From: an uncultured Thermoanaerobaculia bacterium | Lineage (GTDB): Bacteria; Acidobacteriota; Thermoanaerobaculia; Multivoradales; J023 | Length of the DNA stretch: 64,000 bases | Direction: 5' to 3' | Assembly (NCBI GenBank): GCA_964565225.1 | Contig: CAZMEL010000007.1 | Location: 439-64,438 of the forward strand | Shown here: piece by piece, positions 21,976-62,081 of the stretch | Position numbering within the stretch: the first letter of the stretch is position 1 | Layout: every line of letters starts with the position of its first letter | The notes under the pieces: model-generated | The model's input: the letters and a program-made list of their open reading frames with translations, nothing else | Databases searched by the model: none | What the model was told of the DNA's origin: nothing | Translations under genes and position numbers: made by a program

Positions 21976-22956
21976 TCAACCCGCGACCACCGGCTCCGGC
22001 GTCGCTGCCGCGGAAACCACTCTTTCCCGGGTGTCGCTCTCCCACATGCCCGTGGAGCCATACCGCTCGCCGGTGTCGCTCAGGACCGTGACCGCCACCG
22101 CTGCCCGGGTCTCTTCGAGCACTCGCAGCGCGGCGTACACGTAGGCTCCGGAGGACGGACCGACGAAGAGGCCGCAGCGGGCCAGCTGGTGGCACACGGC
22201 CACGGAGTGGTCGATGGTGACGTCGATTCGCTGATCGATCAGGGAAGAATCGAGGATCTCCGGAACCAGATCTCCTGGGTGGCCCAGGGGTTTGAGCCCC
22301 TCGATTCCCGGAAAGATCTCGGGAATCACCGAGGCGATGTAGATCTTCGGATTCTCCTGCCGCAGGCGTCGACCCACCCCGGTGATGGTGCCCCCGGTGC
22401 CGACCCCGGCCACGAAGACGTCGGGCAGCTGGCCGGCGGCTTCCCGTACCTGCTCGGCGATCTCCTTGCCGGTGGTCTCGAAATGGGCCCGCCAGTTGTC
22501 TTCGTTGCTGTACTGGTTGCTGTACCAGTAGGTCTCGGGCTGCTCCTCCGCCATTCTCCGGGCGGTATGAACGGCGAAGTCGTATCCCTCGTTGGGGTCG
22601 GTCAACACCAGCTCGGCACCGTAGGCGCGTATTCTCTCCAATCGCTCGCGACTGGCATTGCCGGGTACCACCAGGGTAACGCCGACTCCGAGCGCTGCCC
22701 CGAACTGGGCGTAGGCGATGCCGGCGTTGCCCGAAGAGGAATCCAGCAGACGGCGTCCGTCGAGATCGCCGCGGGCCAGGGCCTGGGTGATCATGCGAGC
22801 GACCGGCCGATCCTTGATCGAGGCGCCGGGGTTACAGCTCTCGAGCTTCGCGAAGAGCCGGCTGCCCGGGGGCAGCGCGTCGTGGAGCGGAAGCTCGACG
22901 AGAGGAGTATTGCCTACGGATCGTAGAAGGTCTTCGGCTTGGATGGTTGGAGCCAT
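21976..22956 (-). CDS. cysM: PLP-dependent cysteine synthase (CysM type, probably sulfur-carrier dependent)
   Basis: KLESCNPGASIKDR (PLP lysine), SSGNAG, GVGTGGT; operonic with MoeZ and a ubiquitin-like carrier. Confidence 0.9.
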   Translation of the reverse strand: MAPTIQAEDLLRSVGNTPLVELPLHDALPPGSRLFAKLESCNPGASIKDRPVARMITQALARGDLDGRRLLDSSSGNAGIAYAQFGAALGVGVTLVVPGNASRERLERIRAYGAELVLTDPNEGYDFAVHTARRMAEEQPETYWYSNQYSNEDNWRAHFETTGKEIAEQVREAAGQLPDVFVAGVGTGGTITGVGRRLRQENPKIYIASVIPEIFPGIEGLKPLGHPGDLVPEILDSSLIDQRIDVTIDHSVAVCHQLARCGLFVGPSSGAYVYAALRVLEETRAAVAVTVLSDTGERYGSTGMWESDTRERVVSAAATPEPVVAG

Positions 22957-23010: not shown

Positions 23011-24180
23011 TCAGATCGCCAGCGCGCAGGACGCAGCGTAGTCCACGTATTCGATGGGCTTGGCGTCGTCGCCGCAGCACGGGCACTCGGGATTGCGATC
23101 GATCTTGAGCTCGGTGAACTTCTGCTCCAGAGCATCGTAGACCACGAGACGCCCGACCAGCGGATCGCCGAGACCTAGCAATACCTTCACCGTCTCCACC
23201 GCCTCCAGGGTTCCGATGACGCCGGGCAAGATTCCAAGGACGCCGGCCTCGGCACAGGAGGGAGCCAGCTCCGGCGGCGGCGGCTCGGGGAAGAGGCAGC
23301 GGTAGCAGGGCCCCTGGCGGCCTTCGTAGGCCGGCCAGAACACGCTCAGCTGTCCATCGAAACGAAAGATCGAGCCGTGCACATTGGCGATGCCGTGTTT
23401 GACGCAGGCATCATTCACCAGGTAGCGGGTCGAGAAGTTGTCCGAGCCGTCGACCACGACGTCGACCCCGGCGATCAGGCGGTCGATGTTGGAGCTGTCC
23501 AGCCGCTCCTGGTGCGTGAGGATCCGGAGATCCGGATTCATCCCCAGCAGCGTCGCTTTGGCTGATTCGACCTTGGGTTTGCCGACGTTTTCGTCGGTGT
23601 GCAGGATCTGCCGCTGGAGGTTGCTGCGGTCCACCACATCGTCGTCGATCAGGACCAGAGTTCCGACTCCCGCGGCGGCGAGATAGAAAGCCGCCGGGGA
23701 GCCGAGCCCGCCGGCACCGACCATCAGAACCTTGCTGTCGAGCAGCCGAGCCTGCCCCTCCTCTCCGACCTCGGGAATCAGGAGGTGGCGTCCGTACCGC
23801 TCGCGTTCCCGATCGTTCAGGACCCGGGGAACCTCCACCGGCAGGCCCTCGTTCTTCCAGCCGTTGAAACCTCCGTCCATCGAGCGGACGTCCCGGTAAC
23901 CGAGCTCCTGGAGATCTCTACCCGCGAAGAGGGAGCGCGAGCCTCCGGCACACATCACCACGACGGGGGTGTCGAGATCGGCGACGCTGTCTTCGATCTT
24001 CAGCTCCAGGAAACCGCGAACGATACGCTCGGCTCCCGCCGGGCTCCCTGCGGCCACCTCGTCGGGCTCCCGGATATCGATCAGGGCGGCACCCCGGCTC
24101 TGGAGCTCGAAGGCCTCCATCGGGGAGACCTCGGGAACCGTCTCCTTCAGCTGTTGCAGGCGGCGTTGACGAGCGATCAT
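23011..24180 (-). CDS. moeB: Rhodanese-ThiF/MoeB fusion (MoeZ-like sulfur-carrier adenylyltransferase/sulfurtransferase)
   Basis: N-terminal rhodanese with CAGGSRS; RYGRHL, GAGGLGSP, DRSNLQRQ, CYRC and CPCC zinc sites. Confidence 0.93.
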   Translation of the reverse strand: MIARQRRLQQLKETVPEVSPMEAFELQSRGAALIDIREPDEVAAGSPAGAERIVRGFLELKIEDSVADLDTPVVVMCAGGSRSLFAGRDLQELGYRDVRSMDGGFNGWKNEGLPVEVPRVLNDRERERYGRHLLIPEVGEEGQARLLDSKVLMVGAGGLGSPAAFYLAAAGVGTLVLIDDDVVDRSNLQRQILHTDENVGKPKVESAKATLLGMNPDLRILTHQERLDSSNIDRLIAGVDVVVDGSDNFSTRYLVNDACVKHGIANVHGSIFRFDGQLSVFWPAYEGRQGPCYRCLFPEPPPPELAPSCAEAGVLGILPGVIGTLEAVETVKVLLGLGDPLVGRLVVYDALEQKFTELKIDRNPECPCCGDDAKPIEYVDYAASCALAI

Positions 24181-24461
24181 CGCCCACCTCCAGCCACCGC
24201 CGGCACGATGTGCAGGGTCGCTCCATCGGTCACGGCGGATCCGAGGCCGTCCAGCGAGCGCACGTTCTTGTCGTCGAGGTAGAGATTAACGAAGGCTCTG
24301 GGCTGCCCCTCGGCATCGAGAATCCGATCGAGGAGACCAGGATGGGCGGAACCGAGAGCCTGGAGAGCCTCTCCAACGGTTTTGCCTTCTGAGGCGACTT
24401 CGGCCGCCCCTCCCACCATCGGTCGCAGCGGGGCAGGAATACGAACATTCACTTGGCTCAT
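24177..24461 (-). CDS. MoaD/ThiS/CysO-like ubiquitin-fold sulfur carrier with extended C-terminus AVAGG-GR
   Basis: VRIPAPLR, FVNLYLDDKNVRSLDGL, IVPAVAGGGR then TGA, confirmed in the DNA; ATGA overlap with moeB. Confidence 0.92.
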   Translation of the reverse strand: MSQVNVRIPAPLRPMVGGAAEVASEGKTVGEALQALGSAHPGLLDRILDAEGQPRAFVNLYLDDKNVRSLDGLGSAVTDGATLHIVPAVAGGGR

Positions 24462-24533: not shown

Positions 24534-25016
24534 TCAATGCAATGACTCTTCGATCAGAGCGCCTCCGACCCGGCGCCAGGAGCGAAAACGGGCGCTTCCC
24601 AGGGCGGGTACGGAAACCCTCAGGTAGGAAATCTCCTCCGGCACGTCCTGCGCTCGTACGTCTTCGGCCTCAGTGCAGCAGGACACGGCTCGCCAGACGC
24701 CGATCACCTCGAGACCCGCTGGTCCCAGGCTGTCCCGCGCTGCCTGCACGGCTTCGGGGCCCGGGAGCTGGCGTCCCTCCGGGAGGTCGGATGGGTCGAG
24801 GTAGGTCACTTGCTCGATCAGGTTTCGCTCACCGTCCCGATGCCCGATCAAGAAACCCGTGGATTCGAAAGGATACGAGATCTCCGCGAGGCTGGCGAGC
24901 TGGCGAGCGAGATGGCTGGGCAGTATCGACTCGGCCGAAGACCGGCCCAGAGCCTTGGACAGCTGGTCGCTGGCCGAGGCCATGAGCGGCTGAGACTCAC
25001 TGGATGGTACGCTCAT
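24534..25016 (-). CDS. JAB/MPN (Mec-like) domain protein lacking the JAMM zinc ligands
   Basis: YPFESTGFLIG, GLEVIGVW, SY and RSW..EE match the Mec/JAB scaffold, but HSH..S..D is replaced by RAVSCC. Confidence 0.75.
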   Translation of the reverse strand: MSVPSSESQPLMASASDQLSKALGRSSAESILPSHLARQLASLAEISYPFESTGFLIGHRDGERNLIEQVTYLDPSDLPEGRQLPGPEAVQAARDSLGPAGLEVIGVWRAVSCCTEAEDVRAQDVPEEISYLRVSVPALGSARFRSWRRVGGALIEESLH

Positions 25017-25054
25017 TTCAATCCCCTCTTCCAGATCTGAGACACGCAGGAACG

Positions 25055-25083
25055 AAAAAGGCCGCCGGATCTACCCGGCGGCC
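25055..25083 (-). terminator. Intrinsic terminator (attenuator) in the cysteine operon leader
   Basis: Minus strand GGCCGCCGG-GTAGAT-CCGGCGGCC followed by TTTTT, 38 nt upstream of the first operon ATG. Confidence 0.85.
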
Positions 25084-25144
25084 CTGGAAACAACCGCCGG
25101 GCTCAGGGCCCGGCGGTCGGTATCGTCGTTCTTCGGTCAGCGAA

Positions 25145-25246
25145 TCAACGTCCACACCTCGGCCAGGCCATAGTGCTCGCACAAGGACAACACGCACAGA
25201 GGCAGGCCAGAAGAAAACACGTAGGTTTGAAGGTTCGGTGAAGCAT
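25145..25246 (-). CDS. Cys-rich leader peptide (33 aa, 7 Cys)
   Basis: MLHRTFKPTCFLLACLCACCPCASTMAWPRCGR; GGGGA RBS; lies between a sigma70 promoter and the attenuator hairpins. Confidence 0.8.
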   Translation of the reverse strand: MLHRTFKPTCFLLACLCACCPCASTMAWPRCGR

Positions 25247-25264
25247 GGTCGTATCCCCGACTGA

Positions 25265-25294
25265 GTTATACGCCGACCCCGGGGGACCTGTCAA
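25265..25294 (-). promoter_or_regulatory. Sigma70 promoter TTGACA-N18-TATAAC
   Basis: Near-consensus -35 (25294-25289) and -10 (25270-25265), 18 nt upstream of the leader ATG. Confidence 0.85.
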
Positions 25295-25316
25295 CGGTTC
25301 GTTGCCGGCTTTCCTC

Positions 25317-26849
25317 TCACGCCGCCTTCTCTGCTCCACGGTTCAGAGACCATTTCAGGGCCAGCGGGGTCACCAGGGTCGTGACCATCACCATGATCAC
25401 GACCGCGGAGAAAATGCCTTCGGTTACCACGCCGAGGCCTTTGCCGATACTGGCGAAGATCAGCCCGACCTCTCCCCGGGGCGTCATGCCGAATCCGATC
25501 GACAGGCGGTCGAGGTCTTTACCTGCCGGCAGACCCGACACGACCTTGCCGATGACCGCCACGACCACGAACGCCGTGGCGAGGCCCAGGGTGCCTGGTT
25601 CCAGGAACGTGGCGAGGTTCACCTGCATGCCCATGAGCACGAAAAAGATGGGTGCAAAGATCGCTTCCAGAGGATCGACCATCTCTTCGATCGGATGCCG
25701 CCGATCTTTGAAGTGCTCCTCTTTGAGCAGCAACCCGGCGGCAAAGGCACCGACGATCGCCGCCAGCTCGATCTTGTTGGCCGCCCAGGACATGAAGAAC
25801 GCCAGCAGGAGCGGTAGCAGGAGCTTGCCATGGGGCCTCTGGAGCACGTCGACCGCCCTCGCCGTCCACCGCGAGAGCCGGTTGCCGAAGAGCAGGACGG
25901 CACCGAGGAAGGCGAAGGAGAGCCCGATGATGCGCAACACATGGAAGAGCTGGACATCCCCCGTCGACACGATTCCGACCACCACGGCGAGGATGATCAG
26001 ACCGAGGATGTCGTCGATCACGGCGGCACCCAGAATGATCTTTGCCTCCGGCGTGTGGAGACGGTGGAAATCCTTGAAGACCCGCGCCGTGATCCCGACG
26101 CTGGTGGCGGTCAACGTGGCGGCCAGGAAGAGATGGACCGCCTGCCCTTGATCGGGCAGGAGCCACAACGCGCTGAGGTACCCGAGGCCGAAGGGCGCGA
26201 AGATACCGACCAGGGCCACGGCGAGCGCGCGCTTGCCGACGCCGATCATCTCGTCGATGCTGGACTCGAGGCCGACCATGAACAGCAGCAGGATCACGCC
26301 GAGGTTCGAGAAGATCCAGATCGAGAAGGTCACGATCACGAAGATCGAGCCGTGAGGGCCGATCACCACCTCGAGAAGCCGGTCGCCGGCCTCCCCGGCG
26401 CTCAGCTGCTCCGCGCTCAGAACCCTTCGGGCCGCCTCGGAGACCGAGATGTTCTCGGCCCAGATGACCTGGAACATCTTCGACACCCAGTCCAGGTGCA
26501 TGATCAGAACCGCCAGAGGCTCGCGCAGGGCATACCCGATATTGCCCAGCACCACACCCACCACCAGCTCCCCGAGCACCGTCGGCTGGTCGAGGCGAGC
26601 CGCCAGGACTCGCCCGATGAGGGCCGCGAGCACCAGGACGGCGAGGCCGAAGAGGATCTCTACGAAGGGGTCGCTGTGGCCGCCCTCACCGCCGCCCGCG
26701 GCGGTTGCGGTCACCGGCCACAGGAACGCCGTAGCGAACGCGAAGAGACAGGCCACGAGCACCATCGGAACCGGCCTCGGAGCCGCTTCGCGGCGAGGCA
26801 TCCAGGTTCTTCCAGACTTTTTTTCGACGTTCCGGGAAGGCGTGAGCAT
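25317..26849 (-). CDS. CPA2-family cation:proton antiporter (NapA/Kef-like)
   Basis: VLGELVVGVVLG, LLLFMVGLES, ATSVGITARV, AAVIDDILG, GMTPRGEVGL; about 13 TM helices. Start uncertain. Confidence 0.9.
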   Translation of the reverse strand: MLTPSRNVEKKSGRTWMPRREAAPRPVPMVLVACLFAFATAFLWPVTATAAGGGEGGHSDPFVEILFGLAVLVLAALIGRVLAARLDQPTVLGELVVGVVLGNIGYALREPLAVLIMHLDWVSKMFQVIWAENISVSEAARRVLSAEQLSAGEAGDRLLEVVIGPHGSIFVIVTFSIWIFSNLGVILLLFMVGLESSIDEMIGVGKRALAVALVGIFAPFGLGYLSALWLLPDQGQAVHLFLAATLTATSVGITARVFKDFHRLHTPEAKIILGAAVIDDILGLIILAVVVGIVSTGDVQLFHVLRIIGLSFAFLGAVLLFGNRLSRWTARAVDVLQRPHGKLLLPLLLAFFMSWAANKIELAAIVGAFAAGLLLKEEHFKDRRHPIEEMVDPLEAIFAPIFFVLMGMQVNLATFLEPGTLGLATAFVVVAVIGKVVSGLPAGKDLDRLSIGFGMTPRGEVGLIFASIGKGLGVVTEGIFSAVVIMVMVTTLVTPLALKWSLNRGAEKAA

Positions 26850-38856: not shown

Positions 38857-39041
38857 GTTCGTTCTCCAACCATCGATTCTAGGATCTGATGAATGATCGC
38901 AGGCTCGTTCAGCGAGTAGCAGGAAGGGGCGAGGAAGGAGTCGAGGGGACTCGAATCCACCGAAACGAGACTCACTCGGACCCGAATTCGAGACCAGTGA
39001 GTGGTAAGCTCTCGACTAGCTTATACGATCAAAATCTCGAA

Positions 39042-40604
39042 ATGGAGCCATCAACTTCTCAGCCCCGACCGATGGGGACCATGTCCAGGCCCTCGGCAGC
39101 TCCATCGTCGAACCTGGCGGCCGTCGACCTGGGATCGAACAGCTTCCGTATGGTGATCGCTCGCCGGGTCAAGGACGAGCTGCGCCTGGTCGATCGGTTG
39201 CGCGAAGGCGTTCGCCTCGCAGAATGCCTCGACTCGAAGCAGAACCTGACCTGGGAGGGTATCGAGCGGGGCGTCCGCTGCCTGCGGAAGTTCGGCCAGA
39301 GGTTGCGGGATTTTCCCCGAGGCAACGTGCGGGCGGTGGGCACGAACACGTTGCGCAAGGCGAAGAACGGCGAAGACTTTCTCGCCGCCGCGGAAGAGGC
39401 CCTTGGATTTCCCATCGAGATCATCTCCGGCCAGGAAGAAGCACGGCTGATCTTTCTCGGTGTTTCTCACAGCCTGCCCGCGCTTCCCGGCCGTCGTCTC
39501 GTGGTCGACATCGGGGGCGGTAGCACCGAGTGCATCGTCGGCGAGGCCTTCGAGCCCCGCCGGGCGGAGAGCCTCTACATGGGCTGCGTGGGCTACACCC
39601 TGCGGTATTTCCCCAAGGGAAAGATCACTCCCAAACGGATGCAGAAAGCGGAGATCGCCGCCCGCCTCGAGATGCGACCGATCAAGGCCATGTTCCGCGA
39701 CCTGGGCTGGAGCCATGCGGTCGGCGCCTCGGGCACGATCCACGCTGTCGCCGAAATCCTCCAGGCCAACGGCTGGAGCGAGCGCGGGATCACGGCCGAT
39801 GGCCTGGCTCGTTTGCGGGCCGAGATCCTGCATCAAGGCCATGTCGACCTGCTGAGCCTCAAAGGGCTGCGTCGAGATCGGGCCAAGGTGCTGCCCGGTG
39901 GCGTCGCCGTTTTGTCCGGAGTCTTCGAAAGCCTCCGGGTCGAGAGCATGGCGGTCTCCAAGGGGGCGCTGCGCGAAGGTGTGCTCTACGATCTTCTGGG
40001 CCGGATCCGCCACGAAGACGTCCGCGACCGCACGATCCACCGCTTCGTGGAGCAATACAATGTCGACCTCGCCCAGGCGCAACGGGTCGAAGCCACGGCT
40101 CTACTTTGTTTCGAGCAGGTGGCCGAATCGTGGAAGCTCCAGGGCCCCAACGACAAGCTGCTCCTGAGCTGGGCCGCCCGGCTGCACGAGATCGGCCTCG
40201 CCATCGCACACGGCGCGTTCCACAAACACAGCGCCTATCTGATCGACTTTTCCGACATGCCGGGTTTCTCGCGCCAGGATCAACGAATCCTCTCGCTCCT
40301 GGTGCGCGGAGTCCGCCGAAAGTTTCCGCGGCAGCTCTTCCAGGCGCTCCCGACCTCCCAAGCTCGACGCACCGTTCGACTCTGCTGCCTGATCCGGCTC
40401 GCGGTGCTGCTCAACCGCAGTCGCACGGGACGACCGCTCCCTCCCTTCACACTCGAAGGCAAGGGCAAGAATCTTCGGCTCTCTCTTCCCGAGAACTGGT
40501 TGCGGGAGAATCCGCTGACCCGAGCCGATCTCGGGCAGGAGGCCTCGTATCTGAAGGCCGCGGGGATCAAGCTCCGGTTGCAGGACTCTTCGGAAGAATC
40601 TTGA
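39042..40604 (+). CDS. ppx: Exopolyphosphatase Ppx/GppA
   Basis: DLGSNSF, GTNTLR, ISGQEEARL, DIGGGSTE, GALREG and C-terminal HD-like domain. Start uncertain (39042/39072/39081). Confidence 0.94.
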   Translation: MEPSTSQPRPMGTMSRPSAAPSSNLAAVDLGSNSFRMVIARRVKDELRLVDRLREGVRLAECLDSKQNLTWEGIERGVRCLRKFGQRLRDFPRGNVRAVGTNTLRKAKNGEDFLAAAEEALGFPIEIISGQEEARLIFLGVSHSLPALPGRRLVVDIGGGSTECIVGEAFEPRRAESLYMGCVGYTLRYFPKGKITPKRMQKAEIAARLEMRPIKAMFRDLGWSHAVGASGTIHAVAEILQANGWSERGITADGLARLRAEILHQGHVDLLSLKGLRRDRAKVLPGGVAVLSGVFESLRVESMAVSKGALREGVLYDLLGRIRHEDVRDRTIHRFVEQYNVDLAQAQRVEATALLCFEQVAESWKLQGPNDKLLLSWAARLHEIGLAIAHGAFHKHSAYLIDFSDMPGFSRQDQRILSLLVRGVRRKFPRQLFQALPTSQARRTVRLCCLIRLAVLLNRSRTGRPLPPFTLEGKGKNLRLSLPENWLRENPLTRADLGQEASYLKAAGIKLRLQDSSEES

Positions 40605-40633
40605 GCCCACCCGTCGCGAAGCGCCGTCGTCGG

Positions 40634-41143
40634 TCAGCTGGTGGGCCAGAGCCTTTCGAGCATTCGCGGGCGCAGCATCCAGACCAGCTCGCCCGAGCCC
40701 TTCTCCAGCTCTTGCCACCGGGAGACGTCGAAGTCGATCCGAGCCATTGCCGCGGTGACCATGCGAATCGACGCTCGCCCGATCAGCTCCCCACCCAGGG
40801 CCGACCAGGTGGGCTCGTGCCCCGCCACCAGGAGACTTCGGAATCGGTCGTCACAACCCCGAATCTTCTCCAGCACCCCCACCACAGTCGCCTCGTAGAG
40901 CTCCGAGCTCGCCTCGATCTCGCAGCCCCAGCCTCCGGCCGCCTTCGCTTCTTCCACCGTGGTCCGGGCCCGGACGGCGGTGGAGGTCAAGATCTTCTCG
41001 GGCACCTCTCCGATCGCCGCCAGGAAACGGCCGACCACCACCGCAGATCGATGCCCGCGCCGGTTCAAGGGCCGTTCGTGATCGCGGCCGTACTCTACGT
41101 TCCAATCGGATTTCGCGTGGCGCAGCAAGATCAAGGTCTTCAT
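40634..41143 (-). CDS. sixA: SixA-like histidine phosphatase
   Basis: LLRHAKS, RPLNRRG, STAVRARTT, GHEPT. Confidence 0.9.
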   Translation of the reverse strand: MKTLILLRHAKSDWNVEYGRDHERPLNRRGHRSAVVVGRFLAAIGEVPEKILTSTAVRARTTVEEAKAAGGWGCEIEASSELYEATVVGVLEKIRGCDDRFRSLLVAGHEPTWSALGGELIGRASIRMVTAAMARIDFDVSRWQELEKGSGELVWMLRPRMLERLWPTS

Positions 41144-41240
41144 CGTTTCTTCTCGTGGGTCGGCTAGAGTCTTGTGACATGGTCGCCAATGGTAGGCTTT
41201 CAGATCCGAATCCACTCATTCAGAATCTCGAGTCAGAGGC

Positions 41241-43259
41241 ATGACCACGACGAAGTCCAAGTCACCACAAAGCAAAACGACGAAAAAGCTCGACGCGCCG
41301 GAGCATTTCATCAACCGGGAGCTGAGCTGGCTCGAGTTCAACCGCCGAGTTCTCGAAGAAGCCTTCGACGAATCGAACCCGCTGCTCGAGCGTGTGAAGT
41401 TCCTCTCGATCTTCTCCAGCAATCTCGACGAGTTCTTCATGATCCGAGTCTCCGGACTGCGCCGTCAGCTGGTTTCGGGAGTGGTCTCGTCTCCACCCGA
41501 CGGCTTGACCCCCGCCGAGCAGCTGAACGTCCTGCAGGAACGCCTGGAGCCCATGCTCGGCCAGGTCGCCCAGCTTTGGACCGAGGATCTCCAACCACGC
41601 CTGAACGGCGCCGGCATCCGCATTCTCAGCTATGACCAGCTGAAGAGCAAACAACGGAAGCTACTCCGCCGCCACTTCCAGAGAGAGATCTTCCCGGCCC
41701 TCACTCCCCTGGCCTTCGACCCCAGCCATCCGTTCCCCCACATCTCCAATCTCAGCATCAACCTGGCAGTGGTTGTCTCTCATACCGGCCAGGGTCCCAC
41801 TTTTGCCCGACTGAAGGTGCCACCCATCTTCCCTCGCCTGCTGCGAATTCCGGCCGAAGACAAGGCGGGAAGCTACGAGCGGCTGGGGCTGAGAGAAGTG
41901 GTGGCCAACAACTTCGTGTGGCTCGAGGAGGTGGTGGTCGCCAATCTCGACCTGCTCTTCCCCGAGATCGACATCGTCGACGCCTTTCCTTTCCGAGTCA
42001 CCCGCGACGCCGATTTCGAAATCGAGGAAGACGAGGCCGCCGACCTCCTGCTGGCGATGGAGGAAGTGGTGGAGCAACGTCACTTCGGCTTCGCGGTCCG
42101 CCTGGAGGTCGACAATCGGATCCCTGCTTCCATCCTCGACATGTTGGTGAGGAACCTGGAGCTCGCCCCGTACCAGGTCCACTCGACCGAGGGCCCGATC
42201 GGGCTCTCCGACGTGATGGAGCTCACCAAGCTCGACCGCCCGGAGCTCAAAGATCCTCCCTTCCAACCACACCAGGCTCTCGCGTCCGATGCCGAGATCT
42301 TCGCCGCCCTGCGCAAGAAAGACCTGCTCCTCTACCATCCCTACGACAGTTTTTCGACCGTCGTCGACTTCGTGCAGCAGGCGGCGCGCGATCCCGATGT
42401 CCTGACCATCAAACAGACCCTCTATCGGGTCGGCACCGACTCGCCCATCGTGCAGGCCCTGATGGAGGCCCGGGAAAACGGCAAGCAGGTGGCCGTGCTC
42501 GTAGAGCTCAAGGCCCGGTTCGACGAGAGGAACAACATCGTCTGGGCCAAGGCTCTCGAGCGTGCCGGGGTGCATGTGGTCTACGGGGTGCTCGGGCTCA
42601 AGACCTACCTCACCTGCGACCCGGAGATTGCTTCCGACGTCTCCGATCTCTTCAACTCTCTCACCGGGTACTCCCGCAAGGTGGTCTACAGCCACCTGCT
42701 GGTCGCCCCGGGCAGCATGCGGAAAGAGATCCTGCGGCGGATCGAGCGAGAAATCCAGAAACACTCGGAGAACGGCGGCGGGCACCTCGTGTTCAAGCTC
42801 AACTCCCTGGTCGACAAGGCCTGCATCCTCGCGCTCTATCGAGCCTCGATCGCTGGCGTCCGTGTCGACCTGCAGATTCGAGGAATCTGCTGCCTGAGGC
42901 CGAGTGTGCCGGGAATTTCCGAGAACATCCACGTGACCTCGATCGTCGGCAGGTTCCTCGAGCACTCGAGGATTCTCTACTTCCGCAACGGCGGGGACGA
43001 GGAGATCTTCATCGGCAGCGCAGACCTCATGCCGCGGAACCTCGGTGGGCGGGTGGAGCTACTGGTGCCGATCGTCGATCCGGAGATTCGCGACACCCTG
43101 CGCGATTCCATCCTCTTCGCCCACCTCCAGGACGAGCACTGCTCCCAGAAGCTCCTCGCCGACGGATCCTATGAGCCACTCCGACCGACCGAGGGTCGAG
43201 GACGGAACACACAGCAGGAGATGCTCGAGCTACGGGCGAGCCGCAGCACTCTGCATTGA
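41241..43259 (+). CDS. ppk1: Polyphosphate kinase 1 with an internal in-frame deletion spanning the catalytic His; possibly inactive
   Basis: NRELSWLEFN, NLDEFFMIRV, YHPYDSF, ELKARFDE, GRFLEHSRI and SADLMPRN are present, but GLKT is joined directly to YLTCDPE. Confidence 0.93.
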   Translation: MTTTKSKSPQSKTTKKLDAPEHFINRELSWLEFNRRVLEEAFDESNPLLERVKFLSIFSSNLDEFFMIRVSGLRRQLVSGVVSSPPDGLTPAEQLNVLQERLEPMLGQVAQLWTEDLQPRLNGAGIRILSYDQLKSKQRKLLRRHFQREIFPALTPLAFDPSHPFPHISNLSINLAVVVSHTGQGPTFARLKVPPIFPRLLRIPAEDKAGSYERLGLREVVANNFVWLEEVVVANLDLLFPEIDIVDAFPFRVTRDADFEIEEDEAADLLLAMEEVVEQRHFGFAVRLEVDNRIPASILDMLVRNLELAPYQVHSTEGPIGLSDVMELTKLDRPELKDPPFQPHQALASDAEIFAALRKKDLLLYHPYDSFSTVVDFVQQAARDPDVLTIKQTLYRVGTDSPIVQALMEARENGKQVAVLVELKARFDERNNIVWAKALERAGVHVVYGVLGLKTYLTCDPEIASDVSDLFNSLTGYSRKVVYSHLLVAPGSMRKEILRRIEREIQKHSENGGGHLVFKLNSLVDKACILALYRASIAGVRVDLQIRGICCLRPSVPGISENIHVTSIVGRFLEHSRILYFRNGGDEEIFIGSADLMPRNLGGRVELLVPIVDPEIRDTLRDSILFAHLQDEHCSQKLLADGSYEPLRPTEGRGRNTQQEMLELRASRSTLH

Positions 43260-62005: not shown

Positions 62006-62081
62006 GGCGCATTCGTCTAGGGGTCCAGGACGCCGGCCTCTCACGCCGGTAACACGGGTTCGAATCCCGTATGCGCTACCA
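62006..62081 (+). tRNA. tRNA-Glu (anticodon CTC)
   Basis: 76-nt cloverleaf: GGCGCAT/ATGCGCT acceptor, CCGGC-CTCTCAC-GCCGG anticodon arm, TTCGAAT T-loop, encoded CCA. Confidence 0.97.

Follow-up and report, generated by a model that had tools for sequence, protein, structure and literature searches.

What is a short open reading frame with seven cysteine codons doing in front of the genes for making cysteine? The leader in question lies in a 64,000-nucleotide stretch of DNA (the window), and all of the features described below are on its minus strand. Judged from their sequences, the genes 3' of the leader constitute a CysO-type cysteine pathway. The first of them (24534..25016) encodes a 160-amino-acid JAB/MPN-like protein with a degenerate JAMM motif, recognized by alignment; its match to Pfam Prok-JAB (E = 8.6e-4) is below the cutoff. 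Next come a CysO/ThiS-family sulfur carrier of 94 amino acids that ends in ...AVAGGGR (24177..24461), a rhodanese-ThiF adenylyltransferase/sulfurtransferase of 389 amino acids (MoeB/MoeZ-like; 23011..24180; NF006444, 595 bits), and a 326-amino-acid PLP-dependent cysteine synthase of the CysM/CysK family (21976..22956). The MoeB-like protein shows a 67% match to L007, which at first pointed to Planctomycetota. That placement was rejected because the best named relatives of the PPK1 protein are from Acidobacteriota, Thermoanaerobaculia, and Holophagales and because the leader's homologs (below) are mostly acidobacterial.

The answer that we favor, at a probability of about 0.8, is that the leader would attenuate transcription in the ribosome-mediated, leader-peptide manner, sensing charged tRNA-Cys and controlling the JAB-CysO-MoeZ-CysM operon. 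The parts at its 5' end can be read from the sequence. A -35 hexamer, TTGACA (25289..25294), is separated by 18 nt from a -10 hexamer, TATAAC (25265..25270), and a Shine-Dalgarno-like GGGGA (25254..25258) stands 7 nt ahead of the leader ATG (25246-25244); transcription would start about 12 nt 5' of this codon. A consensus promoter scan of the window did not call the promoter because position 6 of the -10 hexamer is C. In homologous loci, TTGACA is kept at the matching distance in L001, L004, L006, L133, L136, and L291 and appears as TTGACG in L313, the -10 counterparts at the matching place are TATAAA, TATGAT, TACCCT, CACAAT, and TACCAT, and the GGGGA site is identical in L001 and L004.

The leader ORF (MLHRTFKPTCFLLACLCACCPCASTMAWPRCGR; 25145..25246) comprises 33 codons and a TGA (25147-25145). 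It has a start codon and a ribosome-binding site, sits 3' of the promoter and 5' of the operon, and is predicted to be translated. Cysteine occupies codons 10, 15, 17, 19, 20, 22, and 31 and is encoded by TGT at six of the seven, Cys15 being TGC, whereas across the long ORFs of the window TGT accounts for 23% of Cys codons (60 TGT versus 198 TGC). Nowhere in the window is cysteine denser (7/33 codons versus 0.95% Cys in the window's ORFs), and no 13-residue stretch other than CFLLACLCACCPC, in any of the six frames of the 64 kb, has six Cys. The cluster formed by Cys15, 17, 19, 20, and 22 (25181..25204) contains the predicted stall sites.

Past the cluster, the RNA offers a chain of competing pairings. 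Segment -1 (GGCCUGCC; 25201..25208) holds the Cys15 codon and is, in minimum-free-energy (MFE) structures, the partner of segment 0 in untranslated RNA; its conservation was inspected by eye, in L001 and L004 only. Segment 0 (GGCCTGGC; GGCCUGGC; 25162..25169), the 5' strand of the putative antiterminator, lies within leader codons 26-29 and begins 12 nt past the Cys22 codon. Its complement, GCCGGGCC (25114-25107), is part of segment 1 (CGACCGCCGGGCC, 25107..25119, with ACCGCCGGGC at 25117-25108), which can pair with either segment 0 or segment 2. Segment 2 (GCCCGGCGGUUG, 25091..25102, with GCCCGGCGGT at 25102-25093) is followed by the tail UUGUUUCC and can act as the 3' arm of hairpin 1:2 (T1), whose U-tract is weak in the window, or as the 5' arm of 2:3. 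Segment 3 (GGGCCGCCGGG, 25074..25084, with GGCCGCCGG at 25083-25075) pairs with segment 2 or segment 4. Segment 4 (CCGGCGGCC, 25068-25060) and the U5 tract (25059-25055), together 25055..25068, form with segment 3 the intrinsic terminator T2. A terminator scan detects 3:4 and its T-tract as a 12-pair stem at 25085-25058, between the leader ORF and the first gene.

The 216-nt leader folds more stably than its dinucleotide shuffles (z = -4.1). Calculated energies are -30.6 kcal/mol for AT, -25.0 for T1, -20.2 for 2:3, and -23.4 for T2, and energies and pair probabilities agree that 0:1 excludes 1:2 and that 2:3 excludes 3:4. An earlier note on this DNA had proposed the same 1:2 and 3:4 stems with 2:3 as their exclusive alternative, and it had placed the promoter, the ribosome-binding site, the 33-residue, seven-Cys ORF, segments 0 to 4, and U5 exactly where a script that re-derived the positions puts them. 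It had also extended the pairing of segment 0 by GGTGT/ATACC. These strands do pair, but they close a local hairpin, P0 (GGUGU...AUACC; 25122..25158), which has the leader stop codon within it and stacks under 0:1.

How would the leader choose between these folds? When Cys-tRNA is scarce, the ribosome would stall in the Cys15-Cys22 cluster and cover segment -1. Segment 0 would be left free because it lies just past the ribosome's leading edge, and, stacked on P0, it would capture segment 1 as soon as that segment is made. Segment 2, freed in this way, would pair with segment 3; neither 1:2 nor 3:4 would form, and the operon would be read through. When Cys-tRNA is ample, the ribosome would pass segment 0 and P0 and reach the stop codon as segments 1 and 2 emerge. 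Hairpin 1:2 would then form, presumably a weak terminator here, given its UUGUUUCC tail, and the sole one in many relatives; 3:4 with U5 would form next, and transcription would end. If the leader is not translated, segment -1 would sequester segment 0, and termination would again be favored. As modeled, the window's subfamily would have a five-segment relay of the his type with a duplicated terminator.

Ensemble folding with ribosome masks, assuming a footprint of -15 to +12 around the A-site codon, bears on each of these states. With the ribosome masked at Cys15-20, P(0:1) and P(2:3) are 0.88-1.0 at transcript ends 173-180. At Cys22 the outcome is mixed, with P(0:1) at 0.15-0.45; the earlier proposal that stalling at Cys15-22 yields 0:1 and 2:3 is reproduced for Cys15-20. 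Hairpins 1:2 and 3:4 form in ribosome-free RNA and also when the ribosome sits at Cys31 or on the stop codon, much as had been proposed for a ribosome that covers segment 0 when Cys-tRNA is ample, the addition now being that 1:2 is itself the likely ancestral terminator (described below). Cys31 is not conserved, and a pause there is predicted to favor termination. In ribosome-free RNA, P(-1:0) is 0.95-1.0 after segment 2 has been transcribed.

One inherent challenge for such a device is that the terminated state is the more stable one. The energy of the termination conformer is -62.5 kcal/mol versus -54.4 kcal/mol for the read-through conformer, and equilibrium modeling always favors termination after segment 2, and later segment 4, has emerged. 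Read-through would therefore need kinetic persistence of 0:1, over the roughly 17 nt that are transcribed until segment 3 emerges. Going from AT to T1 by the direct path means crossing a barrier of about 15.5 kcal/mol, a findpath value that is only a rough upper bound. In members with a single terminator too, the terminator, when complete, always wins in equilibrium modeling. With a ribosome on the last Cys and segment 2 left out of the fold, the segment 0:segment 1 pairing, predicted earlier for the window (25169-25162 with 25114-25107), is in the MFE structure of 15/15 members. In all 15, segment 0 starts 12-20 nt past the last Cys codon, and across the members tested it ends 4-32 nt ahead of the stop codon. 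In these models, the geometry of stall site and stop codon is coupled to the choice of fold.

Is the arrangement peculiar to this one bacterium? Homologous leaders were recovered from at least 20 loci in Acidobacteriota, Thermoanaerobaculia, and unclassified MAGs, with most members being acidobacterial. All keep a run of cysteines (CCC to CCCCC). Cys codons are what the uORFs have in common, for example in MLHRTFNPACSLMACICACCPCAN.. (L001), MRHEPTTCCCCCPS.. (L006), ..SCGATCCALL.. (L133), ..LLCCTTCW.. (L136), ..GGRLCCCCM.. (L257-L259), ..LLCCCCCH.. (L266), ..HTCCCRS.. (L291), and ..VLCCCCRY.. (L313). All also keep a terminator stem of the form (A/G)CCGCCGG...CCGGCGG, followed by a U-rich stretch. 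Outside the run the peptide, 22-36 amino acids long in all, is variable. Toward the 3' end of the leader the nucleotides are conserved and the frame is not; GAGGTGT, for example, is read as a|gg tgt in the window and as gag gtg t in L006.

Among 80 JAB-led loci in GTDB genomes, 13 contain an (A/G)CC(G/A)CCGG...CCGG(C/U)GG hairpin. Every one of the 13 has a Cys-run uORF ending 24-43 nt upstream of it, and more members turned up besides, which is the pattern that the earlier note had expected of orthologous operons. A terminator-like hairpin with a T-tract lies 3' of the uORF in 12/12 of the hairpin-bearing loci checked and also in L278, L305, and L315. When 80 loci were instead found via the MoeB/MoeZ-like protein, only L006 and L008 had the Cys leader, which therefore tracks the JAB-led operon type, not MoeZ generally. 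The hairpin homologous to 1:2 has a strong U-tract in most relatives and is the sole hairpin in many. Hairpin 1:2 is therefore taken to be the ancestral terminator, and 3:4 is probably a second one that arose as a duplicate. A helix is kept at the P0 site with differing 3' strands (CGACG:CGUCG in L133 and L136; UCGA:UCGA and GCUUCU:AGGAGC in L006), and the stretch separating segments 0 and 1 differs among members in both sequence and length.

Conservation of the stems is a matter of register more than of compensatory change. Across the members, 1:2 is paired at 93% and 0:1 at 79%, the latter versus 20-51% when the register is slid. The 0:1 duplex is stronger than shuffles in 14/15 members, at p <= 0.05 in 7, with p = 0.048 for the window and 0.55 for L136; GC-rich shuffles also give decent duplexes. 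The covarying stems anticipated in the earlier note were thus found conserved in register, but their covariation is weak because the paired cores are nearly invariant, and that of 0:1 is not significant (its score was reached by 61/500 shuffles). A covariance model, R1, built from 11 members that all lie outside the window's subfamily, matches the window at 25191-25083(-) with 45.8 bits (E = 9.5e-12), the only full-length match in the 64 kb. R1 also detects L001, L004, L005, L291, and L313, none of which was in its building set. The leader shares 92% and 84% identity with two relatives, in which the flanking genes reach only 71-82% and 58-79% at their third codon positions; by this comparison the leader is conserved beyond the synonymous sites of neighboring genes.

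The window's own subfamily was found only in ENA and Logan assemblies, and a search of GTDB genomes for close relatives of the JAB protein found none. A pattern search of genomes and JGI metagenomes with GAGGTRT..GAYGTTGA..ACCGCCGG gave one true match, L090, on the same contig as L006; the other 45 were chance matches within genes or, in the case of L122, an unrelated repeated element. The pattern GACGTTGA..CGCCGGGCC..GCCCGG gave at least 119 matches, and among those listed almost all were spurious GC-rich coding sequence. Taken together, the Cys-run leader, the antiterminator enclosing the stop codon, and the (A/G)CCGCCGG/CCGGCGG terminator may define an RNA family that travels with JAB-CysO-MoeZ-CysM across Acidobacteriota and allied uncultured lineages. 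The balance tips toward this broader claim only modestly.

Could the same features serve another function? In mycobacteria, polycysteine sORFs (Ms5788A and others) are leaderless and act at the level of translation: their poly-Cys tract base-pairs with the Shine-Dalgarno site that follows, and Cys does not affect transcription beyond the leader (Canestrari et al., bioRxiv 10.1101/834739). Ms5788A, the dissected Cys-sensing uORF, frees a sequestered Shine-Dalgarno site with no intrinsic termination (bioRxiv 10.1101/834739). By analogy, Cys stalling here might determine whether ribosomes reach the first gene, or whether Rho loads, with the hairpins unswitched, and in L006 a CUCCG...UGGAG pairing could indeed mask the JAB Shine-Dalgarno site. 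In the window, however, that site (GAGGGGA, about 25030-25024) is 25 nt past the U5 tract, outside any strong predicted helix, and unpaired with the Cys tract; the pairing partners of the Cys cluster are local or in segment 0. Intrinsic terminators are present, and across the family the hairpin and U-tract terminators are kept along with their competition with segment 0, leaving translational or Rho-polarity control improbable. The two systems share uORFs with runs of Cys codons 5' of cysteine or sulfur genes, as well as stalling-based sensing, which is experimental there and predicted here. The window differs in its predicted 5' untranslated region of about 12 nt with GGGGA, its intrinsic terminators, and its separate antiterminator segment.

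More improbable still is that the product of the ORF is what matters, a Cys-rich micro-protein that binds metal or redox partners, is a RiPP precursor, or serves as a sulfur-relay substrate, the hairpins simply ending its transcript or that of the exchanger. An ORF is indeed conserved here, preceded by a plausible promoter and ribosome-binding site, and the terminator scan found no terminator between the Na+/H+ exchanger gene upstream (stop 25317) and the leader. Leader peptides can also act in trans, according to what PMC7298713 relates of peTrpL. What argues against a working peptide is the drift of its sequence, length, and 3'-third reading frame outside the Cys run, along with the placement of segment 0 relative to the Cys and stop codons, which is conserved and which a peptide would not need. 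Furthermore, the element goes with the JAB/CysO operon beside unrelated upstream genes, which encode GlgB in L133, a sulfatase in L136, and the exchanger in the window. The least probable of the explanations weighed is a metabolite- or protein-binding riboregulator (a riboswitch, a T-box-like element, or a protein-dependent antiterminator) in which the ORF and its Cys codons are incidental. Alternative terminator and antiterminator folds mark riboswitches and T-boxes too, and many sulfur-metabolism operons elsewhere are under S-box or T-box control (works cited in PMC1262725). Yet the Cys runs are tied perfectly to the hairpin (13/13), no aptamer-like core of several stems is conserved, what lies between segments 0 and 1 is variable, and no Rfam family reaches threshold in the leader region, where the best score (RcsR1) is 22.4 bits versus a gathering score of 60. 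The RcsR1 match is terminator-like and without biological link, and permissive Rfam E-values gave only terminator-like noise; in the window as a whole, only a tRNA passes threshold.

Ribosome-mediated attenuation of transcription thus remains the preferred reading, and its classical examples are the trp and his leader-peptide attenuators of Enterobacteria. With them the leader has in common a promoter-proximal short ORF rich in codons for the end product and mutually exclusive hairpins, the last an intrinsic terminator, with the fold being set by where the ribosome stalls. With the his leader it also shares a chain of alternative pairings, here -1:0, 1:2, and 3:4 versus 0:1 and 2:3. It differs from both in several respects. 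(i) Cysteine would be sensed, and the regulatory codons are 5' of the released segment, not within it. (ii) The leader stop codon is inside the antiterminator stem-loop (P0). (iii) Terminator hairpins come as a tandem pair, of which the first is apparently ancestral. (iv) The host is uncultured and probably Acidobacteriota-like, not enterobacterial. No sequence homology is apparent: His_leader, Trp_leader, and the other leader models in Rfam gave no match to the element.

Cysteine attenuators have been predicted elsewhere. Brewer et al. 2021 (PMC8632094) predicted ribosome-mediated attenuation for the uORFC-8-2 motif, found 5' of cysS in Rhodobacterales, which likewise conserves Cys codons and has an intrinsic terminator with a run of U. 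Judged by its description, it is set apart by its target, a cysteinyl-tRNA synthetase, by its occurrence in Alphaproteobacteria, and by the placement of its two tandem Cys codons within the first stem; in the window, the Cys codons are 5' of the switching segment and the target is JAB-CysO-MoeZ-CysM. Candidate Cys leaders of actinobacteria lack conserved terminator hairpins, and Rho-dependent termination has been proposed for them (Seliverstov et al. 2005, PMC1262725). They too are short ORFs with runs of Cys codons 5' of sulfur genes, there placed near the stop codon and preceding cys or cbs operons, whereas the present family has complete sets of terminators and antiterminators. The earlier note had been aware of no intrinsic-terminator Cys attenuator of this architecture on such an operon in this lineage. 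We found no description of the present family, but the element is less unprecedented than that implied, because cysS attenuators with intrinsic terminators had already been predicted (PMC8632094).

Overall, the kind of regulation is already known from trp and his, and the new part is a Cys-leader family that has neither an Rfam model nor any published description that we could find. To our knowledge, cysteine long had no place among the amino acids with classical attenuators; the dissected Cys cases that we know of are all mycobacterial and translational, and control of the terminator type has been predicted only for cysS. If the mechanism is as proposed, this would add the first cysteine biosynthetic operon to those with a complete, classical attenuator of the intrinsic-terminator type, and the textbook trp/his logic would extend to cysteine synthesis by the CysO (protein thiocarboxylate) route. 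The leader would also be a compact, sequence-defined candidate sensor of Cys-tRNA charging. A bolder version of the proposal would have the released attenuator RNA of about 190 nt, or the poly-Cys peptide, act in trans as well. In Acidobacteriota, a dominant soil phylum, almost no attenuators have been assigned functions (PMC2965389). The seed alignment supplied here for an Rfam-type model would improve the annotation of metagenomes, and, if the family reading is true, the leader would single out JAB-CysO-MoeZ-CysM, in uncultured bacteria, as an operon that is genuinely regulated by cysteine.

The element lies on the minus strand, and every part listed in the earlier note was recovered on reading 24900-25500: a -35 hexamer TTGACA (25294-25289) and, 18 nt after it, a -10 hexamer TATAAC (25270-25265); a ribosome-binding site GGGGA (25258-25254), 7 nt ahead of the ATG; a Cys-rich leader ORF, MLHRTFKPTCFLLACLCACCPCASTMAWPRCGR, from the ATG at 25246 to the TGA at 25147-25145; hairpin 1:2 (T1), with arms ACCGCCGGGC and GCCCGGCGGT; and hairpin 3:4 (T2), with arms GGCCGCCGG and CCGGCGGCC, followed by U5 (25059-25055). 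A simple terminator scan called 3:4 as a terminator. Against dinucleotide shuffles, the fold of the 216-nt leader is more stable by 4.1 SD, and its MFE and centroid structures consist chiefly of 1:2 and 3:4. Its ORF holds the only 13-residue stretch with six Cys in the six frames of the window, and TGT makes up 6 of its 7 Cys codons, versus 23% in the window's long ORFs. The leader matches no family in an Rfam search; the sole above-threshold match in the 64 kb is a tRNA gene (62006-62078, plus). Upstream lies a Na+/H+ exchanger-family gene ending at 25317. No terminator separates its stop from the leader promoter (25317-25294, minus), so upstream read-through transcripts would also meet the attenuator.

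How would a translating ribosome set the outcome? Boltzmann ensembles were computed with a 28-nt ribosome mask. With no ribosome, an upstream segment -1 (25208-25201) binds segment 0, in the last leader codons, and 1:2 and 3:4 form (P of at least 0.93), giving termination. With Cys15, 17, 19, or 20 in the A site, segment 0 pairs instead with segment 1 (P = 0.99) before segment 2 emerges, and 0:1 plus the antiterminator 2:3 hold at P 0.88 to 1.0 with the 3' end at 173-180, giving read-through. A ribosome at Cys31 or the stop codon restores 1:2 and 3:4 (P of at least 0.98) and termination. In these ensembles the proposed stall-dependent switch is predicted for Cys15 to Cys20; at Cys22, pairing is mixed and the outcome uncertain. 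The energies are -30.6 kcal/mol for 0:1 plus P0, a hairpin around the leader stop codon, -25.0 for T1, -20.2 for 2:3, and -23.4 for T2; the read-through conformer (0:1 plus 2:3) reaches -54.4 kcal/mol versus -62.5 for termination (1:2 plus 3:4). At every ribosome position, the equilibrium favors termination as soon as segment 4 has been fully transcribed; read-through would therefore rest on kinetic persistence, as in classical attenuators, and the direct path from 0:1 plus P0 to T1 has a barrier of about 15.5 kcal/mol.

Three metagenomic assemblies among the loci found in database searches (L001, L004, and L005; L002 and L003 come from the same sequence as L001) form a close subfamily with the window. 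Their leaders are 84 to 92% identical to the window's, more than the third-codon positions of the flanking genes (58 to 82%), and they keep the Cys codons, the hairpins, and the U-tracts. Distant relatives were reached through the MoeZ-like protein, which led to L006, and through a profile of JAB proteins. Their leaders are clearly homologous, with otherwise unrelated peptides: MRHEPTTCCCCCPSRIRLAPEVSRR (L006), MPDPPLIFYSCGATCCALLERPARPRSRR (L133), MSYQNTKRLLCCTTCWVVPRLWSRR (L136), ..GGRLCCCCM.. (L257-L259), ..LLCCCCCH.. (L266), ..FICCCCTH.. (L256, L267), ..RTCCCRY.. (L261), ..RHCCCG.. (L300), ..SCACTC.. (L302), MRRTKGSHTCCCRS.. (L291), and MTTHLQNVLCCCCRY.. (L313). Among 80 JAB-led loci in GTDB genomes, 13 carry an upstream (A/G)CC(G/A)CCGG...CCGG(C/U)GG hairpin. 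The Cys-rich uORFs that the earlier note had suggested looking for ahead of orthologous operons are present in all 13, each with a Cys run and ending 24 to 43 nt before the hairpin. A terminator-like hairpin with a T-tract follows the uORF in 12 of 12 examined, as it does in L278, L305, and L315. A covariance model built from 11 members, with the window's subfamily left out, gives one full-length match in the window (25191-25083, minus; 45.8 bits, E = 9.5e-12) and finds L001, L004, L005, and two new members, L291 and L313. Carriers are mostly Acidobacteriota, Thermoanaerobaculia among them, plus unclassified MAGs. In L291 (2318-2360) and L313 (1569-1606), only 9 to 10 nt separate a -10-like hexamer from the leader ATG, so these leader mRNAs may have little or no 5' UTR, resembling the leaderless mRNAs of mycobacteria. 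In L313 (1603-1800), the homologous leader (MTTHLQNVLCCCCRY...) precedes a gene starting MSENLDRLPRIGDPAPDF, situated some 700 nt before the JAB gene, that by eye looks peroxiredoxin-like.

At three further JAB loci, a Cys-rich uORF precedes a terminator of unrelated sequence: MRMFTSIAMACCCMCAASVV in L278 (2340-2480, a Planctomycetaceae MAG), MCCSTCSCSCSH.. in L305 (9-155, a Gemmatimonadota MAG), and MYGTCGRRDFCFRFTCMAFCH.. in L315 (2276-2425, a Planctomycetota MAG). They could have arisen independently or be relatives that have diverged strongly. A JGI metagenome contig, L122 (2120-2300), carries two tandem copies of a ~75-nt element, GACGACATCATTCGCTGATCGGC...ATGGACC(A/G)CCGGG...CCCGG(T/C)GGTGACGGGAG; it was rejected as a chance match to the search pattern and looks like a REP-type repeat.

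Is the 0:1 pairing itself conserved? In all 15 members folded with the run's last Cys codon occupied by a ribosome and with segment 2 withheld, the MFE structure pairs the T1 5' arm with a segment 0 lying within the uORF's 3' part. Segment 0 starts 12 to 20 nt past the last Cys codon, just beyond the leading edge of a stalled ribosome, and ends 4 to 32 nt ahead of the stop codon, which sits inside P0, between segments 0 and 1. The 5' strand of P0 (..UCGACGUUGA) is conserved, and the 3' strand varies by lineage yet still pairs (CGACG in the window, CGUCG in L133 and L136, other arrangements in L006). Between the window and L006, nucleotides here are conserved even where they are read in different frames, which argues for a function of the RNA over one of the peptide. 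Duplex energy between segment 1 and the inter-Cys-to-stop region lies below that of dinucleotide shuffles in 14 of 15 members and reaches p <= 0.05 in 7 (window p = 0.048), the members being non-independent. When 17 members are aligned with MAFFT, standard pairs fill 79% of the cells of 0:1 versus 20 to 51% with the partner slid, and 93% of 1:2 cells are paired. Covariation proper is weak for 0:1 (the observed score is reached by 61/500 shuffles) and modest for 1:2 (21/500). The third G in the GGG after the CCGCC core of segment 1 shows notable consistent changes: it is A in L258, L300, and L319, and its segment 0 partner is U. The segment 2 partner is also U in L258; in L300 and L319, that position falls within the T1 loop.

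U-rich sequence follows the homologous 1:2 in most members (UUUUGUGGUUU, UUUUUUAGUUU, U7 in L136, UUUUGUUUU in L005), and this hairpin is the only one in many; from these sequence features, 1:2 is read as the ancestral terminator. A second, near-identical hairpin, T2, is present in the window, L001, L004, L005, L133, L302, L319, and L328. The window, L001, and L133 have degenerate T1 tails (UUGUUUCC, UCGUUUCC, CUCCGUCUU), which makes T2 their likely principal terminator.

Downstream of the leader, all on the minus strand, are genes for a JAB/MPN-like protein (25016-24534), a ThiS/CysO-family carrier (24461-24177), a rhodanese-ThiF enzyme of the MoeB/MoeZ type (24180-23011), and a CysM/CysK-family synthase (22956-21976), the gene set by which Mycobacterium tuberculosis makes cysteine through the protein-thiocarboxylate (CysO) route. 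The JAB-like protein (24534-25016) has only a sub-threshold Pfam match. In it and in close relatives, the JAMM metal-binding motif is lost, the sequence reading WRAVSCCTE where L006 and other homologues read WHSHPDHP, and the protein may be a pseudo-enzyme or perform different chemistry. The CysO-like carrier (24177-24461) ends in ...AVAGGGR, two residues beyond Gly-Gly that would need removal to expose it; yet the adjoining JAB-like protein is without the catalytic histidines. More distant relatives carry CysO as an in-frame fusion with the rhodanese-ThiF enzyme (479 to 481 aa; L006 2719-4164, L133 3021-4466, L136 3013-4452). The JAB proteins beside these fusions match Pfam Prok-JAB, and the L006 protein has an intact JAMM motif; a role in cleaving the fusion would fit. 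Elsewhere in the window (38889-43259, plus), ppx/gppA (38889-40604) adjoins ppk1 (41241-43259). The ppk1 ORF as called (672 aa) lacks some 50 aa that most homologues (720 to 750 aa) have at one end, so its start may be further upstream. The best named relatives of this PPK1 are from Acidobacteriota, at about 67% identity, which makes the host of the window a probable member of this phylum or of a lineage near it.

The logic is that of the trp and his attenuators, the his relay being closest. Candidate actinobacterial Cys leaders are without terminators (PMC1262725), and the polycysteine leaderless sORFs of mycobacteria were shown to act translationally, explicitly not via termination (10.1101/834739). 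In Rhodobacterales, uORFC-8-2 is a predicted attenuator upstream of cysS (PMC8632094). Full-text searches of literature open without subscription found no account of a Cys attenuator in Acidobacteria or controlling a CysO-type operon. Overall, the interpretation in the earlier note is supported, with refinements. The element is well defined and directly testable, and it is a new family-level representative of a well-known kind of regulator.
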